NCBI GenBank assembly: GCA_963724825.1
Contig: CAVRWT010000005.1
Coordinates: 204,675 to 268,674 of the forward strand
Length of the DNA stretch: 64,000 nt
Origin: an uncultured Acidobacteriota bacterium
Lineage (GTDB): Bacteria > Actinomycetota > Acidimicrobiia > Spongiisociales > ZC4RG35
Reading direction: 5' to 3'
The notes under the pieces are model-generated. The model was not told the origin of the DNA. It searched no databases and saw only the letters and a list, made by a program, of their open reading frames with translations. Numbering within the stretch: the stretch's first letter is position 1; each line of letters starts with the position of its first letter. Below, piece by piece: positions 55,011 through 61,513 of the stretch. A program made the position numbers and the translations under genes.

Positions 55011-55536
55011 TCCCGCGGACGTCGCCGATCCGCTCCCCAGGCGATCCCTTCTACTCACAGGCGTCTTCGTCGGAGTGGTCATTGCCGGCCTCGCTCTCGC
55101 CTGGCTGTTGAGCGACCACAGCGCGGTGGCCGCCGTCGGGGACGAGGCGCCAAACTTCACCGTGGAACTGCTGGACGGTGGGTCCTTCACATTGCAGGAC
55201 CACCTCGACGAGGACGGCCGGACCCTCGTCCTCAACCTCTGGGCTTCGTGGTGCCTCCCCTGCCGAACCGAGATCCCCGACATTTCCGACTTCGCTTCCA
55301 CCCACCCCGACGTTGCCGTGCTGGGGGTGGCGGTCGAAGACGCCCGAGCCGACTCAATCGCGTTCGCGGAGGAGATGTCACCGTCATACCCGCTCGCCTT
55401 CGGGAGCCAGGAATTCCGCGAGGCCTATCCCTCGGTGGGCCTGCCTGCGACCTTCATCATCGAGCCGGACGGAACTGTGTCGAGCATCGTCAACGGCCTG
55501 GTGGATCAGGAGGCGCTCGAAGAGATGACGGGCTAG
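55003..55536 (+). CDS. TlpA/ResA-like thiol-disulfide oxidoreductase
   Basis: N-terminal [16 protein letters not shown]. Start uncertain: CTG 55003 with GGAGG upstream, or GTG 55075. Confidence 0.88.
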
Positions 55537-56216
55537 GAGATACCGACCAGGCGATCCTCGAGATCCTCGATGTACGCCAGATTCGGGCCCTCCACCATTT
55601 CAGCAGAGATGACCAATCGCTCGCGGGCCGAGAACTTGGGGTTGCACGTGGTGAGGGTCAGCCAGCCACCAGCCTTGTCGTCGGCGACCCAGACATCAGT
55701 CGGCGCCACGATGAGGCTCTCCCTGACTTCGTAGACATGGGTGCCGATCGAGGTCTCCACCTCGATGCGATCACCGGGTCGAAGCAGATCGAAGTCGAAG
55801 AACGGCCGACCATGGGTGGTTCGGTGACCTGAGATCACGGCATTGCCCGGCTGACCGGGGAGCGGGGTGTCGGGCATGTGGCCCGGGCCTTGAGCCAGTG
55901 CAACGCGGGTCACGCCCTCGAACACGACGACGTCGAGGCCGAGTTTGGGGACCCTGAGCCGGGCAAAGCTGGTGTTTTCCTCCGGTTCGTCCTCGGGGTG
56001 GAATTCGATCGGGGCACCTTCCAGGCTCTCGACCGCCTGAACCTGGGGAAGGTGCTCTCGCTCGACTTCGAAGAACCCGTGCAGATCATCCGATGCCTCG
56101 GCCTGGACTCGTCGGTTGACGATGTCGGTGCCGAAGAGCTGCCACCCCAGATAGCCGAATATGAAGACCCCGGTCCAGATCAGGGCCCAGCCGAGGATCT
56201 GGATGTTGCGCCGCAT
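55533..56216 (-). CDS. Class E sortase
   Basis: N-terminal TM, GPGH, SGHRTT, LTLTTCNP, R. Confidence 0.92.
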   Translation of the reverse strand: MRRNIQILGWALIWTGVFIFGYLGWQLFGTDIVNRRVQAEASDDLHGFFEVEREHLPQVQAVESLEGAPIEFHPEDEPEENTSFARLRVPKLGLDVVVFEGVTRVALAQGPGHMPDTPLPGQPGNAVISGHRTTHGRPFFDFDLLRPGDRIEVETSIGTHVYEVRESLIVAPTDVWVADDKAGGWLTLTTCNPKFSARERLVISAEMVEGPNLAYIEDLEDRLVGIS

Positions 56217-57178: not shown

Positions 57179-57769
57179 ATGTTATGGATGGCGATTGTCC
57201 TCTTTCTTTCGTTGGCTATCGCCGTCCTCAGAGGAGGTCGTCTCACCAACCTGGGAGACATCGAGCTGAAAGCCTGGTGGCTTCTGCCGCTTGGCTTTGC
57301 CCTCCAACTCGCCACCGACTGGCTCCCCGACGCCGACTGGACACACGGGGTTGCCCTGGCGATGGTTCTCGTCTCTTTCGGCCTCCTGATGATCATGGTC
57401 GTCCTCAACCGGCAGAAGGCGGGAATGTGGCTGGCGGGGCTCGGCGTCCTCATGAACTTCACGGTGATTGCCCTCAACGGCGGAATGCCGGTGCTCGCCG
57501 GGGCAGCCGAGGTGGCAAGCGGCTTCGTTGTCTCGGCCCCGGATCTCAGCGACTCCTACAAGCACGTGCTGCTCGACGAGTCGTCGCGACTGACTTTCTT
57601 TGCCGATGTGATCCCGCTGCGAATCGCCACCATCGGACAGGTGATCAGTCTTGGTGACGTGTTCCTGGCAGTTGGGCTGGGGCGCTTCCTGGAGCACGAG
57701 CTCCGGAGGCCGCGGCGTTGGTTCAAGCGGGGCGCCCACGCCCAGGCCGGCTCGGCATCCAAGCCTTGA
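57179..57769 (+). CDS. DUF5317-like membrane protein
   Basis: RGGRL.NL, G..MNF.VI..NGGMPV, KH, FADVIP, SLGDV; about 5 TMs. Confidence 0.8.
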   Translation: MLWMAIVLFLSLAIAVLRGGRLTNLGDIELKAWWLLPLGFALQLATDWLPDADWTHGVALAMVLVSFGLLMIMVVLNRQKAGMWLAGLGVLMNFTVIALNGGMPVLAGAAEVASGFVVSAPDLSDSYKHVLLDESSRLTFFADVIPLRIATIGQVISLGDVFLAVGLGRFLEHELRRPRRWFKRGAHAQAGSASKP

Positions 57770-57787: not shown

Positions 57788-59041
57788 TCACACCCTCGCC
57801 GGGCTGAGAACCCCTCTGGCTTCGAGGATTCTGCGCACCGAGGCGACCACCTCGGGGTCGTATTCGTAGGCAGCGCCGGTGTGCAGATTCTCCAGAGCCT
57901 GAAGTGGTGACAGGCCTTGCTGGTAGACCTGCCAGTCGTAGGCGGCGGTGACCTTGATGATCCTGGAGACGACCGAGACATCGGGGTCGGTCTGCTCACC
58001 GGGTCTCCGGTAGGACTCGTATTGACGTCTCACGTGCTCGGCGACCCGGTCCAGGTAGGGGGACTCGGCGATGATCTCGGCGCTCCAACGTGCGATGTCG
58101 TCGTTGGTGTAGCCCATCTTGATGATTTGGGGCTCGTTGAGACTGACCCGCCCGATGTCGTGCATCAGCCCGGCGTACTCGACGTCCTCGACCTGGGCCG
58201 GTCCCATTCCCATCTCCTTGGCCACCGCCGACGCCAGCTCGGTGGTGCGGTCGGCGTGACCGTCGACCCCGAGACCTGAGACCTCCGGGATGCGGGCCAA
58301 TGCCCTGATGGTCTGCTTGTAGGTGGCCTTGGTCTTCTGGAACCGCTTGAAGGCGGAGTGGGCGAAGGAGTATGGGAGCAGTGCGATCGGGAAGTGCCCA
58401 CCAGTGCCAGCTGCCGGCCAGAGCTCACCGAACAGGGCGCCGGTCAGGGTGAGCCCGAGGAAGACATTCAGGTCGTAGAGGGCGGATCTCGCCAGATAGG
58501 TGCGGGAAAGCTCCCCTGGCTTGAGGACGAGTGCGGCTCGCAGCAGCACCTCGACCGCGATCCAGGCCACCAGGGCCACTCCGAACGGGACCAGGTCCTT
58601 GCAACTTCCCGAGGTGTCGGCAAACGACCCGACACGCATCGCCGAGTAGACGGTGGCGTAGGTCACGTACCCCGCAAAGCGCCGGGTGAGCGTCGGGAGC
58701 AAATCGATGTGCTTCTCCCCACGGGCCAACCCGAAGGCCCAGACGACAGCCAAGCCGATGCCGTACGTGGCGATACAAGCCGCGAGATCGACCTGCCCGG
58801 TCTCCTGGTTGGTGAGCACGAACGGGATGGCCGCAGCCACCGCAAGCCCGGTGGTGAATCGGTTGCCCGAGCTGGAGGTCGCCACTCCAACCAGCGATCC
58901 GATCACCAGGGCGGTGACACCGACCGCGATGCTGAAGGGATCGGTCGAGGCCTGGCTGGCCGCATAGAGCCCGACTCCGCCCGCAAACAACGGGAACAAC
59001 CAGGAGACCGCAGCCACAGCGCGGGGATGCCAGTTAGCCAC
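57788..59041 (-). CDS. Membrane-bound degenerate HD-GYP protein
   Basis: Multi-TM N-terminus; GHADR and MHDIG retained; HHE/GYP and the later D ligand replaced (RQYE, TAAYD). Confidence 0.85.
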   Translation of the reverse strand: MANWHPRAVAAVSWLFPLFAGGVGLYAASQASTDPFSIAVGVTALVIGSLVGVATSSSGNRFTTGLAVAAAIPFVLTNQETGQVDLAACIATYGIGLAVVWAFGLARGEKHIDLLPTLTRRFAGYVTYATVYSAMRVGSFADTSGSCKDLVPFGVALVAWIAVEVLLRAALVLKPGELSRTYLARSALYDLNVFLGLTLTGALFGELWPAAGTGGHFPIALLPYSFAHSAFKRFQKTKATYKQTIRALARIPEVSGLGVDGHADRTTELASAVAKEMGMGPAQVEDVEYAGLMHDIGRVSLNEPQIIKMGYTNDDIARWSAEIIAESPYLDRVAEHVRRQYESYRRPGEQTDPDVSVVSRIIKVTAAYDWQVYQQGLSPLQALENLHTGAAYEYDPEVVASVRRILEARGVLSPARV

Positions 59042-60429
59042 GGAGAGTCAACTCCGGTTCCTCGGCGAGACGGCGGGCCATCTCCTCGTCGTTCACGTGC
59101 GGGGCGCCCCAGTTGCGACCGGTCTTGATGAGGGCCTTCTCGAAGGCGTCGACCACGTCGGGGTGGAACTGCCCGCCGGAGTGGCGGCGCAGCTCGCGTA
59201 GGGCATATTGCTGGGAGAGGGCCATCCGGTAGGAACGTGCCGAAGTCATGGCGTCGAAGGCGTCGGCGACCCCGACGATGCAGGCCTCCAGACTCGGGGT
59301 CTGGCCATCGGTGTGACCACGACCGCCGTACCCGGTGCCGTCGAAATTGCTGTGATGTCCGGAAGCGATCTCGACCATCGGCTGCAGGAAGTCGACCTCG
59401 GCGAGGATCTCCTCGACGAGATGGGCGTGGGTCTGCATCTCGGCGTACTCCTCGTCATCGAGACGGCCCCGCTTGCGGATGAGCTCGGTGGGGACCGCCA
59501 GCTTCCCCAGGTCATGGATCAAAGCGGCCCAGCGCACCTTCTCCAGCTGGGTCCCGGTGAATCCGAGCTCCTCACCGATCATCTGGGCGAAGACCGCGAC
59601 CCGCTCGGTGTGGCCCCGGGTGTACATGTCTTTGGCCTCGAGAGTCTTGACGAAGCCGCGGATCGACCCGATGTGGGATTCCCGGAGCTGGGAGAAGGCG
59701 TAGAGCGACATGTGCCCGATGGCGTAGACCCCGACGATGAGGACCAGCACCGCTTGCCGGTTGGCGATGAGAACGGCGGCGCCGATCAGGCCGTCCGAGC
59801 AACCCCATGGCGAACTGCCCGAGGAAGAGCACATGCATCTGCGACCAGGGCTGGAGGTTGTCCTTGCCGAAGACGGTCTTCACCGCTCGTCTGATGAGGA
59901 CGGTCTGGACTGTGGCGTAGGCAAGGGCCGCCAACGCCGAGGCCACCGCCACCCGCACCAGGACCTCGGCAGTGTGCTCGGTGAGATGACCGAGGTTGAC
60001 GTCGAGGAGGAACCCGGCAACCGCACCGGCGAGGACGAACTGGCCGAAATTGGCCAGGGGTTGGAACCAGCGCTTCTCCTTGAAGTCGAGCGGGGTGAAC
60101 AGCGCCATCCCACCCATGAGAGCCATGGCGAACATGGCGTCGGAGTCCGGGGTCATGGCGAAGATGACACCGGCGGTCATCGCCACCATCACCGACGACG
60201 ACTGGAGGAGACGGTCGTTGACCTCGACCGCAAAGAACTCGAGGAGGACGAAGAGGGCGGTGAAGGGAAGCCAGTACAGCCACACCGGCGGATCGGAGAA
60301 CATGTAGGTGAGGACCAGGGTCAGAATGCCCATGACCGAATAGGGCACAGCAATCTTGAGCTTTCGCTGCACCGTGGGGCGGAGACGGCCGAACCAGCCC
60401 CGAAGCGTTCTGTTCCTTCTCAGTTTCAT
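59034..60429 (-). CDS. Membrane-bound HD-GYP phosphodiesterase (frameshift ~59790)
   Basis: Multi-TM N-terminus; KDMYTRGHTERV, IHDLGK, HHSNFDGTGYG, VADAFDAMTSARSYR. Confidence 0.9.
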
Positions 60430-60467
60430 GGGAGACCCCGATGTGTGTGGTGAGCCGGCGCCTTACA

Positions 60468-60557
60468 TCAGCCGATTCGGGATGAAGCCGAGCCTGCGGC
60501 TATCACGGCAGCGAGGCTGGCGGCAGCAGCGAGAATTCGGACCAAACGGGCCTTCAT
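60468..60557 (-). CDS. 29-aa signal-peptide-like small protein (candidate signalling-peptide precursor)
   Basis: MKARLVRILAAAASLAAVIAAGSASSRIG*; SD AAGGTGA upstream; directly upstream of and co-oriented with the HD-GYP pair. Confidence 0.65.
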   Translation of the reverse strand: MKARLVRILAAAASLAAVIAAGSASSRIG

Positions 60558-60559
60558 GC

Positions 60560-60705
60560 TGTGACGCTCACCTTCGGTTCTCGTATTTGGCCGGCATTGT
60601 GTTGCCGCCCAGACGTTCCGCTCCGCTGGGGTAGATGGCGTCCAATTGCGTACAGGCCGACGTCTGACGCCGGTCTCACCCGGTTCCCGCTTTCGCGGGA
60701 ACTCT
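60560..60705 (-). ncRNA. Candidate structured leader RNA upstream of the peptide gene
   Basis: Stems GTTCCCGC-GAAA-GCGGGAAC, GGCGTC/GACGCC, CCCAG/CTGGG, CGGCA/TGCCG; no riboswitch class confidently recognised. Confidence 0.35.
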
Positions 60706-60892
60706 TCACATGTCAAAGAGGCCCCTGACTTCGCCCGCCACGGACCGAGGCAAACGGGTCAAAGACCTCGGTTGCCCCACGTACCCATGAATAGCTCCAG
60801 CGCCCCGCAATCTAGACCTGTTGATTACCGGGAACAAGGGGACGGGCGACTATCCCATATGGGGTTGACACCCGGTTGTACCCTGACCCGAT

Positions 60893-61513
60893 ATGGACGT
60901 AGTCGCATTTCAGGAGAAGATCGGCCGGATCGATGGTGTCGAGGCGGCGCGCGTGGTCTACGGAAACGGGCACATCTCAGAGATCCATGTCCTGGCCCGG
61001 CGTAACAAGCCGCCCAAGCAATTGGTGCGCGACGTCCAATCCCTCAGCCAGGCTCTCTATGGCCAGGAGATCGATCGGCGCGTCGTCTCCGTCGTCCAGT
61101 TGGCCGACGGCGACCTGGAAGGTGGGTTCCGCCCCGCACTGATCGATGTGGCCGAGACCCTGGAAGGCTCCCGAGCCGAGGTCACTGTGAGCCTCCGTTG
61201 GGAAAACGAGATCCTCTCCGGCACCGCCATCGGCGCCGCTGCCGCTTCGACCCGAGCCCGCCAGATCGCCGACGCCACGCTGGATGCGGTCCGGCAGGGG
61301 ATTCACAAGGAGGCGGCCCTGGCGATCAACTCCATGGACGTCCCACTCCTCGGGAATCGAAAAGTCGCCGTCGCCCAGGTGGTGGTGGTAACCGAGGCCA
61401 GCGAACGGATGCTGATTGGCTGCGCGTACGTGGAGGACGAGGAGGGCAGGGCCGTGGTGAGAGCTGTGCTCGACGCCCTGAACCGCTTCCTCCCCGACCT
61501 CAAACTGTCCTGA
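60893..61513 (+). CDS. Hypothetical protein with a C-terminal LeuA-regulatory-like ending
   Basis: EIHVL...KQLVRDVQS...IDRRVVSVVQ N-domain; AVVRAVLDALNR C-terminus. Confidence 0.75.
   Translation: MDVVAFQEKIGRIDGVEAARVVYGNGHISEIHVLARRNKPPKQLVRDVQSLSQALYGQEIDRRVVSVVQLADGDLEGGFRPALIDVAETLEGSRAEVTVSLRWENEILSGTAIGAAAASTRARQIADATLDAVRQGIHKEAALAINSMDVPLLGNRKVAVAQVVVVTEASERMLIGCAYVEDEEGRAVVRAVLDALNRFLPDLKLS

Follow-up and report, generated by a model that had tools for sequence, protein, structure and literature searches.

A conserved 29-codon open reading frame embedded in a structured leader RNA upstream of paired membrane HD-GYP genes in uncultured Acidimicrobiia

Comparison of related loci indicates that the 29-codon open reading frame at 60468..60557, on the minus strand of the window (the whole stretch of 64,000 nucleotides that was analysed), is a genuine conserved small gene, beyond what chance would preserve, and that it is embedded in a conserved, covarying leader of about 300 nt in front of two membrane HD-GYP genes. 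The locus is a variation on two known themes, the leader upstream open reading frame (uORF) and the operon-encoded membrane micropeptide. We propose a translated uORF with two roles, in which its translation would remodel the leader of a uORF-HDGYP1-HDGYP2 operon and its product would serve as a membrane micropeptide, a reading to which we assign roughly even chances. HD-GYP phosphodiesterases set c-di-GMP levels; to our knowledge the control of the membrane-bound members is largely unknown, and we know of nothing on it for uncultured Acidimicrobiia. The folded leader, the mini-gene and the two membrane sensor enzymes form a compact testable module present in well over 100 loci, with a natural experiment built in, as certain lineages keep the hydrophobic peptide and others the uORF alone. 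Coding and RNA structure both constrain the same 90 bases, to the point that synonymous sites covary.

The frame opens with an ATG at 60557-60555 and closes with a TGA at 60470-60468, and its product is MKARLVRILAAAASLAAVIAAGSASSRIG. A Shine-Dalgarno-like AAGGTGA (AAGGUGA in the RNA; 60568..60574, minus strand) lies 10 nt 5' of the ATG, and GGUGA is kept 8-12 nt 5' of the start in relatives. The original prediction had described this frame, its start, its Shine-Dalgarno sequence and its nesting within an 82-aa ORF, all of which the letters bear out; the enclosing ORF (60716..60468) starts at a TTG that is the UUG of the UUGACA box of the leader, and it is not a gene. The next gene starts 38 nt 3' of the micro-ORF, with the ATG at 60429 of a membrane HD-GYP gene.

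This HD-GYP gene 1 (59034..60429, minus strand) encodes a multi-helix N-terminal domain of about 210 aa followed by an HD_5/HD domain (Pfam HD_5, E 3e-31). It is broken in the assembly by one extra base at 59793, located against locus L003, and its orthologues are open frames of 475-510 aa. The AF2 model of the membrane domain is an all-helical bundle (pLDDT 78, pTM 0.74) for which Foldseek returned 0 matches in the PDB at E <= 0.001. HD-GYP gene 2 (57788..59041, minus strand; Pfam HD_5, E 2e-11) comes third in the operon and has an 8-nt overlap with gene 1. By coordinate comparison, 41 relatives have gene 2 directly 3' of gene 1 on one contig and in one orientation, and we therefore take uORF-HDGYP1-HDGYP2 as the unit. 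The spacing from the micro-ORF stop to the HD-GYP start varies between 27 and 105 nt. Scans for sigma-70 promoters and intrinsic terminators found 0, and an adjacent sortase gene lies at 55533-56216.

Searching 60 relatives with the membrane domain alone, the N-terminal part of HD-GYP gene 1, gave 30 loci, 25 of which carry, just 5' of the HD-GYP gene, a frame that matches the micro-ORF in length and ends [KRS][IVL]G-stop. One of the other five frames is cut by a contig end, one locus is without upstream DNA and three are without the frame; the 29 testable loci thus hold 25 full frames and one partial frame. The reciprocal search, seeded with the peptide, returned 30 loci, and a membrane HD-GYP gene follows on the same strand in 27/27 of those with downstream DNA, which supports a genuine small gene that is conserved and linked to the HD-GYP pair. 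Three of the 25 loci with the frame come from unpublished genomes (G011, G039 and G050), on which the tallies of HD-GYP-seeded loci, the codon statistics, the class-wide profile search and the HDGYP2 linkage partly rest; two further unpublished genomes are counted in the polar-uORF sub-clade (G295) and in the census of HD-GYP genes in the second order (G584), both described below. The metagenome-assembled genome (MAG) of the window is 2.55 Mb, 89% complete and 64% GC, and the named relatives are uncultured Acidimicrobiia MAGs throughout, some of them mislabelled by their submitters.

The frame has the signature of coding sequence. Over 19 distinct nucleotide versions, entropy at codon positions 1, 2 and 3 was 0.89, 0.54 and 1.43, with the maximum at the third position, and the uncorrected pN/pS was 0.303/0.655 = 0.46. 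L15, A24 and G29 are invariant in these versions while the third codon positions of all three vary. Within the window's genus the region of leader and ORF is nearly invariant in nucleotides, and peptides are identical or one residue apart, whereas the adjoining membrane domain is only 83-88% identical. We infer that the micro-ORF is translated in vivo.

A class-wide profile search with the peptide, covering 301 genomes, gave hits in 52 of them at E <= 0.01. The solid ones all fall in the window's order, in families f1 (20/35), f2 (10/16), f12 (7/7), f5 (3/3), f6 (3/3) and f11 (2/2), and six marginal matches (E 0.0012-0.008) lie elsewhere in the class. The micro-ORF is single-copy, the seeming second copies in G052 and G283 being contig-end duplicates of one locus. 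Public protein sets contain 73 clusters at E <= 1, labelled 'hypothetical protein' or unnamed and with a Pfam domain in 0 of them; a search of 1.84 billion proteins gave 23 representatives at E <= 0.001, and the ESM Atlas holds unnamed 29-30-aa clusters only. Because the database match sits invariably at the extreme C-terminus, the longer entries are start-codon miscalls. The expectation that gene callers would miss the ORF holds in part only, with 57 of the 73 clusters being exactly 29 aa. Pfam and NCBIfam returned 0 hits above their cutoffs for the peptide, the HD-GYP membrane domain and a divergent 206-aa gene, and our literature searches found no paper describing an HD-GYP-linked micro-ORF or leader element. 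On these comparisons the peptide family and the RNA element are unnamed and belong to no named family, and the locus adds a micropeptide family as well as an RNA element absent from Rfam.

Sequence conservation across the order extends over the 200 nt before the micro-ORF and about 30 nt after it, and the parts of the leader, all on the minus strand, follow one another as given here. A 5' block (GGCGGGCGAAGUCAGGGGCC ... UUGACA; 60711..60740), conserved across the order in alignments, precedes hairpin P1 (GUUCCCGCG-AAA-GCGGGAAC; 60683..60702), whose stem is kept while letters of loop and stem change; in this helix 1, two of the four counted pairs have changes on both sides. Directly after P1 comes the 5' strand of a long-range helix, LH (GGGUGAGACCGGCGUCAGACGUCGGCC; 60655..60681), the 3' strand of which (AUCGGCUGA UGUAAGGCGCCGGCUCACC; 60449..60476) consists of codons 28-29, the stop and 19 nt beyond. 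LH, 20-28 bp long, encloses a domain of about 230 nt, and 11 nt separate its end from the HD-GYP ribosome-binding region downstream. Between the 5' strand and the uORF stands the box AGCGGAGCGGA (60617..60627), 63-79 nt 5' of the uORF start and with columns invariant in alignments A4 and A5. RNAalifold gives a candidate pairing of this box with uORF codons 6-11 (helices 4 and 5), in pairs that hardly vary. Hairpin P3 (helix 6; approximately 60588..60610) lies between the box and the Shine-Dalgarno sequence, and all of its pairs (7/7) are changed on both sides. Codons 12-24 of the micro-ORF form an internal hairpin (helix 8; about 60524-60487) with changes on both sides in 4/13 pairs, and within it the third positions of L15 and A21, both synonymous, covary (UA 10, GC 8, CG 5). 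The short ORF in the 5' leader overlaps conserved helix strands, with its stop in LH and with its own internal hairpin.

A consensus structure from RNAalifold, based on 38 leaders, was checked one column at a time. Its pairs were formed in 81.3% of cells, compared to 29-45% with slid partners, and its covariation score of 0.240 exceeded the slid controls (0.07-0.11), with 0/500 shuffles as high. Both segments of LH (helices 2 and 3) contribute, with changes on both sides in 10/19 pairs, and RNAduplex gave dG values of -36 to -58 kcal/mol for this helix, at z <= -2 versus shuffles in 36/38 leaders and with numerous compensatory changes between them. The fold of the window's own leader is -140 kcal/mol (z -2.45). 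The structure lies on the micro-ORF's own strand, as its frequent G-U pairs show. On alignment A5 RNAalifold found no base pairs, and the leader model R1 was for that reason built from sequence only; it matches its own genome once (E 6e-21) and 23/151 genomes of the class, essentially inside the window's order. A permissive scan of 59800-61300 against Rfam 15, including c-di-GMP-I and c-di-GMP-II, gave best E values of 1.4-9.5, far below gathering scores. A cobalamin riboswitch, an initial guess from the letters, was dropped after this null scan. Pairing of the micro-ORF Shine-Dalgarno sequence with the strand after the ORF was dropped as well, since it holds only in the window's genus.

Further HD-GYP-seeded loci (n = 80) comprised 34 with the hydrophobic 29-codon ORF, 40 without it and six without enough upstream DNA. 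The 40 form a sub-clade of the window's family (genera g13, g43 and g47 and related MAGs), in which the HD-GYP membrane domain is 59-75% identical to that of the window. The sub-clade retains the leader, the Shine-Dalgarno sequence and the start, and its uORF ends at AUCGGCUGA, as in the window, or 11-23 nt earlier. Its products are polar and show little conservation; they include a 25-aa MKAFLARN...VASL..VLAGTRIG form and 19-aa forms. Pooling the published loci gave about 103 distinct leaders, every one with a uORF having the same Shine-Dalgarno sequence and start: 58 hydrophobic 29-codon uORFs, 42 non-hydrophobic ones of 19-30 codons, one 8-codon uORF (L021) and one in-frame fusion to HD-GYP. 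Stops of the 42 non-hydrophobic uORFs are canonical in 27, 11-23 nt earlier in 12, 5 nt later in two and scored +16 in one. These results indicate that a frame at this place is universal and that the hydrophobic peptide is the majority state. Since the sub-clade encodes polar peptides, the hydrophobic peptide is dispensable and cannot be an obligatory subunit, and the retention of uORF and leader without it points to a cis-regulatory role of translating the ORF. The in-frame fusion (G001, locus L005) was considered as Rosetta-stone evidence of binding and rejected, because HD-GYP2 is split over three frames there, additional substitutions are present in the fused peptide and the positive-inside topology would be inverted.

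When 401 genomes sampled from the phylum were searched with a membrane-domain profile, distant homologues turned up beyond the window's order, including one in G688, a genome of the same phylum and another class, where the AGCGGAGCGGA box lies 76 nt 5' of a 26-aa ORF, MTKRLFVALSALATLVLASGASASWA. The HD-GYP homologue is present in 38/95 genomes of the order of G688 (hereafter the second order), preceded by a 25-27-aa hydrophobic uORF in 24/24 loci with enough upstream DNA. The consensus of these uORFs is M-S/T-K-R-I-F-L-A-M-A-S-L-A-A-L-V-L-S-S-G-A-S-x-S-W-x-R, and with a peptide profile made from Acidimicrobiia only they ranked as the top 23 of 1,739 stop-to-stop segments (E 3e-5 to 0.3). The AGCGGAGCGGA box, with at most 2 mismatches, stands 68-76 nt 5' of the uORF in 19/19 second-order leaders, while the long helix was detected at z <= -2 in 0/19. 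In another order of the window's own class, G063 has a 29-aa MKKSFVRVTLLVSSAAALLLSGGAGMGWK together with a GAGCGGAGCG box and a long helix. The membrane-like character of the peptide has therefore persisted where the RNA around it is different.

The peptide carries K2, R4 and R7, a run of 20 apolar or small residues (positions 5-24, mean Kyte-Doolittle 1.9) and then SSRIG; no Cys was found in the 29 residues. Conservation was read from 130 distinct peptides, a set retrieved by profile and hence biased toward profile-like peptides. Within it, D, E, K, R, H, P, Q and N are absent from positions 8-24 in 127/130, K or R is kept at positions 2, 4, 7 and 27, and the small residues of positions 22-24 are frequent (G22 in 123/130, S23 in 113/130, A24 in 128/130). 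The n- and h-regions, signal-anchor-like in character, the small residues and the missing Cys bear out the original prediction. The tail is likewise conserved within the order ([KR] 128/130, [IVL] 128/130, G 126/130). At under 50 aa and with one predicted transmembrane helix, the product would be a 29-aa single-span membrane micropeptide, N-in/C-out, with a stripe of small residues and a 5-residue tail outside, and it would insert into the membrane. Part of this conservation is attributable to the RNA, as the conserved residues V6-R7, A10-A11, S14-A16, A21-A24 and I28-G29 coincide with RNA helices, the codons of the cleavage-like G22-S23-A24 forming part of a hairpin. The loop codons 17-20, which lie outside the helices, have T or C nearly always at the second position, and the hydrophobic peptide is probably not a mere shadow of the RNA, a point on which the second order is decisive.

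In the proposed mechanism the uORF would be the first cistron of the uORF-HDGYP1-HDGYP2 operon, with its early codons, the hairpin inside it and the final two codons with the stop serving as strands of the conserved helices. A ribosome reading the uORF would have to melt these helices, and the translation state of the uORF would thereby set the fold of the leader and, through it, expression of the c-di-GMP phosphodiesterase genes. The exact step may be exposure of a ribosome-binding site, termination or processing. In folding models the ribosome-binding site of the uORF is mostly paired (unpaired probability 0.24-0.41). A modelled ribosome at the uORF stop moved the unpaired probability of the HD-GYP site from 0.25-0.60 to 0.32-0.60, a weak effect, and footprint modelling of eight leaders increased access to that site in six, left it unchanged in one and decreased it in one. 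The peptide itself would insert in the membrane and most plausibly act there on the multi-helix sensor domain of the HD-GYP enzymes or next to it, and a membrane regulator of the HD-GYP pair, the second option of the original prediction, is still a candidate reading. Operon linkage makes this sensor its putative partner, the peptide being encoded beside it in 27/27 peptide-seeded loci and in 24/24 testable loci of the second order.

Several other explanations were weighed against this dual-role uORF. A purely cis-acting leader ORF, in which the act of translation alone matters and a functionless peptide owes its hydrophobicity to GC-rich helices, is unlikely, with these points in its favour: a sub-clade with leader, start and stop encodes polar, poorly conserved peptides of 19-30 aa, the 8-codon version in L021 still ends R-V-G-stop, and conserved residues coincide with helices in which two synonymous third positions covary. 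It does not readily account for the unbroken apolar stretch of 127/130 peptides, which includes the non-helix loop codons 17-20, or for the hydrophobic peptide that the second order keeps with different nucleotides and without a detected long helix. An open frame persisting by chance inside a conserved non-coding RNA would fit a region that is conserved structured RNA throughout and nearly invariant in nucleotides within the window's genus. We find it scarcely credible given a length fixed at 29 codons in 57/73 database clusters, a conserved Shine-Dalgarno sequence and start, codon periodicity, invariant residues with variable third positions and a frame kept over two orders.

The two remaining alternatives give the peptide a different fate. 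It could be the precursor of a secreted peptide, as the original prediction had suggested, in which a 24-residue Sec signal is cut after G-S-A and frees [STN]-x-[KR]-[IV]-G, to be sensed outside, perhaps by the HD-GYP membrane domain. A basic n-region followed by an h-region and small residues at -3 and -1 of a putative cleavage site (G22 and A24) are present; the second order likewise has S-G-A-S or A-G-A-S ahead of a 4-6-residue tail, and the tail differs between the orders (KIG versus SW-x-R) along with the receptor domain. However, a conserved site with a variable tail had been predicted, and the tail proved nearly fixed within each order, unlike known pheromones, with [KR][IVL]G kept in 126-128 of the 130 peptides. 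The tail codons and the stop also contribute one side of a conserved RNA helix. Among the neighbours scanned, no gene for export, processing or import was noticed; the adjacent sortase has no LPXTG-type substrate here; and the NCBIfam AgrD model reached 12.8 bits where its cutoff is 19. A pheromone precursor is thus unsupported, and we regard secretion of the tail as very unlikely. Type I toxins such as hok and tisB have mRNAs held in an untranslatable fold, and a membrane peptide of this kind, locked by long-range pairing and occasionally expressed, would accord with a 29-aa hydrophobic product, a mostly paired uORF ribosome-binding site, a long-range helix closing the RNA and a clade that tolerates loss of the hydrophobic peptide. 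Such a toxin is nevertheless highly improbable here, as the element has one match per genome in strict synteny with one operon over two orders and is neither patchy nor multi-copy, the G-U pairs show a sense-strand structure, and the start of the downstream gene is only 38 nt away.

The dual-role uORF has partial counterparts among known systems. In the Salmonella mgtA leader with mgtL, and in ermC with ermCL, an embedded short ORF decides between alternative leader folds. Like these, the micro-ORF is a short ORF in a long structured 5' leader and overlaps conserved helix strands, so that ribosome occupancy would have to change the fold. Unlike them, it showed neither a regulatory codon run nor a known arrest motif, its product is a conserved peptide of hydrophobic, membrane type, and its stop lies in the long-range closing helix; the genes concerned are c-di-GMP phosphodiesterases in uncultured Actinomycetota, and no relationship by sequence or Rfam was found. 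KdpF (first cistron of kdpFABC, about 29 aa), MgtR, MgrB and AcrZ are small single-span membrane proteins encoded with their partners. The micro-ORF product resembles them in being under 50 aa, in its one predicted transmembrane helix, in sharing an operon with a polytopic membrane protein and in a packing face of small residues, but it has no sequence similarity to named families, it was lost in one clade without an obvious change in the presumed partner, and its binding to HD-GYP is putative. Phr and AgrD are precursors of peptide pheromones with a hydrophobic export-like N-terminal segment and a very short C-terminal part. The micro-ORF product shares this short precursor shape, but its tail is conserved and not diversifying, a partner processing or import gene was not seen among the neighbours, and AgrD stayed below cutoff. 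The CD1980.2 family of C. difficile consists of 58-aa membrane-associated proteins encoded behind c-di-GMP-I riboswitches by multi-copy, stand-alone genes (PMC13724677). The likeness is that of a small, long-unannotated membrane-associated protein after a structured RNA in a c-di-GMP network, and the differences are that the micro-ORF has 29 aa, is single-copy, lies inside an RNA without an Rfam match and opens a phosphodiesterase operon as its first cistron, with no homology between the two.

A more speculative reading, which we consider distinctly unlikely, takes the leader as a new class of sensing RNA with dual function, marked by the invariant AGCGGAGCGGA box that two Actinomycetota orders have in common and using as its expression platform the translated uORF, which itself encodes a membrane peptide. 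Candidate ligands would be c-di-GMP or its breakdown products, and the helix-closed core of about 240 nt might accumulate as a discrete, possibly end-joined RNA. If this were true, a sensing RNA would set the level of two c-di-GMP phosphodiesterases.

The 1-kb stretch around the micro-ORF shares words with RNA-library runs of many studies; word shares of 0.15-0.19 in runs other than the four below are not evidence. Contigs were obtained from four runs of four studies, labelled groundwater, freshwater sediment and sediment, and those of 4/4 runs cover leader and micro-ORF, which attests to the presence of the sequence and is not proof of transcription, strand or ends. Contig X1 spans 60460-60820 with 0 mismatches, X2 spans 60385-60752 with 2 mismatches, X3 spans 60450-60685 with 0 mismatches and X7 spans 60467-60688 at a depth of 55.7. 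One RNA contig has a putative permuted junction. Attenuation or processing, as read from the contig ends, was set aside, since contig ends and uncovered parts prove nothing and loose ends are present. X1 and X7 stop 1-8 nt beyond the micro-ORF stop. Over the four runs, none of the contigs covers more than the first 44 nt of the HD-GYP coding region, and several of them end near 60448-60467 and 60685-60690.

In the second order, which lies outside the window's class and carries a uORF of 25-27 aa before homologous HD-GYP genes, loci L175-L203 contain a conserved C-rich motif, CCUCCCCCGC.CACCGCUCGC, approximately 35-45 nt past the uORF stop codon. Part of this motif, CCGCUC, has its complement in the AGCGGAGCGGA box, the leader element that precedes the uORF start in both this order and that of the window. 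This complementarity suggests, at the level of sequence, that another long-range pairing replaces in the second order the helix seen in Acidimicrobiia. Upstream of the HD-GYP gene in one relative's locus (L168, genome G067), the end of the uORF region displays a 15-nt tandem duplication, with AACACGAAGATCGGT present twice and the N-T-K-I-G ending thus doubled. It is one instance of how rapidly the body of the uORF turns over in genomes lacking the hydrophobic peptide.

Two RNA-library contigs placed on the leader have unusual joints. One contig from run X7 (290 nt, depth 55.7; window 60448-60690) is permuted: in the RNA sense, the uORF together with the long helix's 3′ strand gives way to 34 other letters, after which the leader hairpin P1 and the 5′ strand of this helix come again. 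A second small contig switches at 60448 to hairpin P1 of a relative in reverse complement. Possible causes of these joints are circular or end-joined RNA, cDNA self-primed from the paired 3′ end, or a mixture of organisms.

Compared with a relative's locus that is 97% identical (L003), HD-GYP gene 1 of the window (60429-59034, minus strand) carries a single surplus base at 59793 that breaks it into two frames, while its orthologues have open frames of 475-510 aa. Either an error of assembly or a true pseudogene in this MAG may lie behind the split. At locus L005 (genome G001, approximately 1381-1500), an 8-nt deletion close to the end of the micro-ORF shifts it into the reading frame of the HD-GYP gene, resulting in an open fused frame of 535 aa. 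The G001 operon looks degraded, or its assembly indel-prone, since HD-GYP2 in this genome is broken over three frames.

The divergently oriented 206-aa gene at 60893-61513 (plus strand), which has no Pfam or NCBIfam family, may also be conserved, judging from similar stretches (...EAVVRAVLDA) upstream of the leader in the loci of distant relatives. On the other side of the operon, a gene for a DUF5317 membrane protein (57179-57769, plus strand) is convergent with HD-GYP2 and ends 19 nt from it, and a sortase gene (55533-56216, minus strand) is located farther along.
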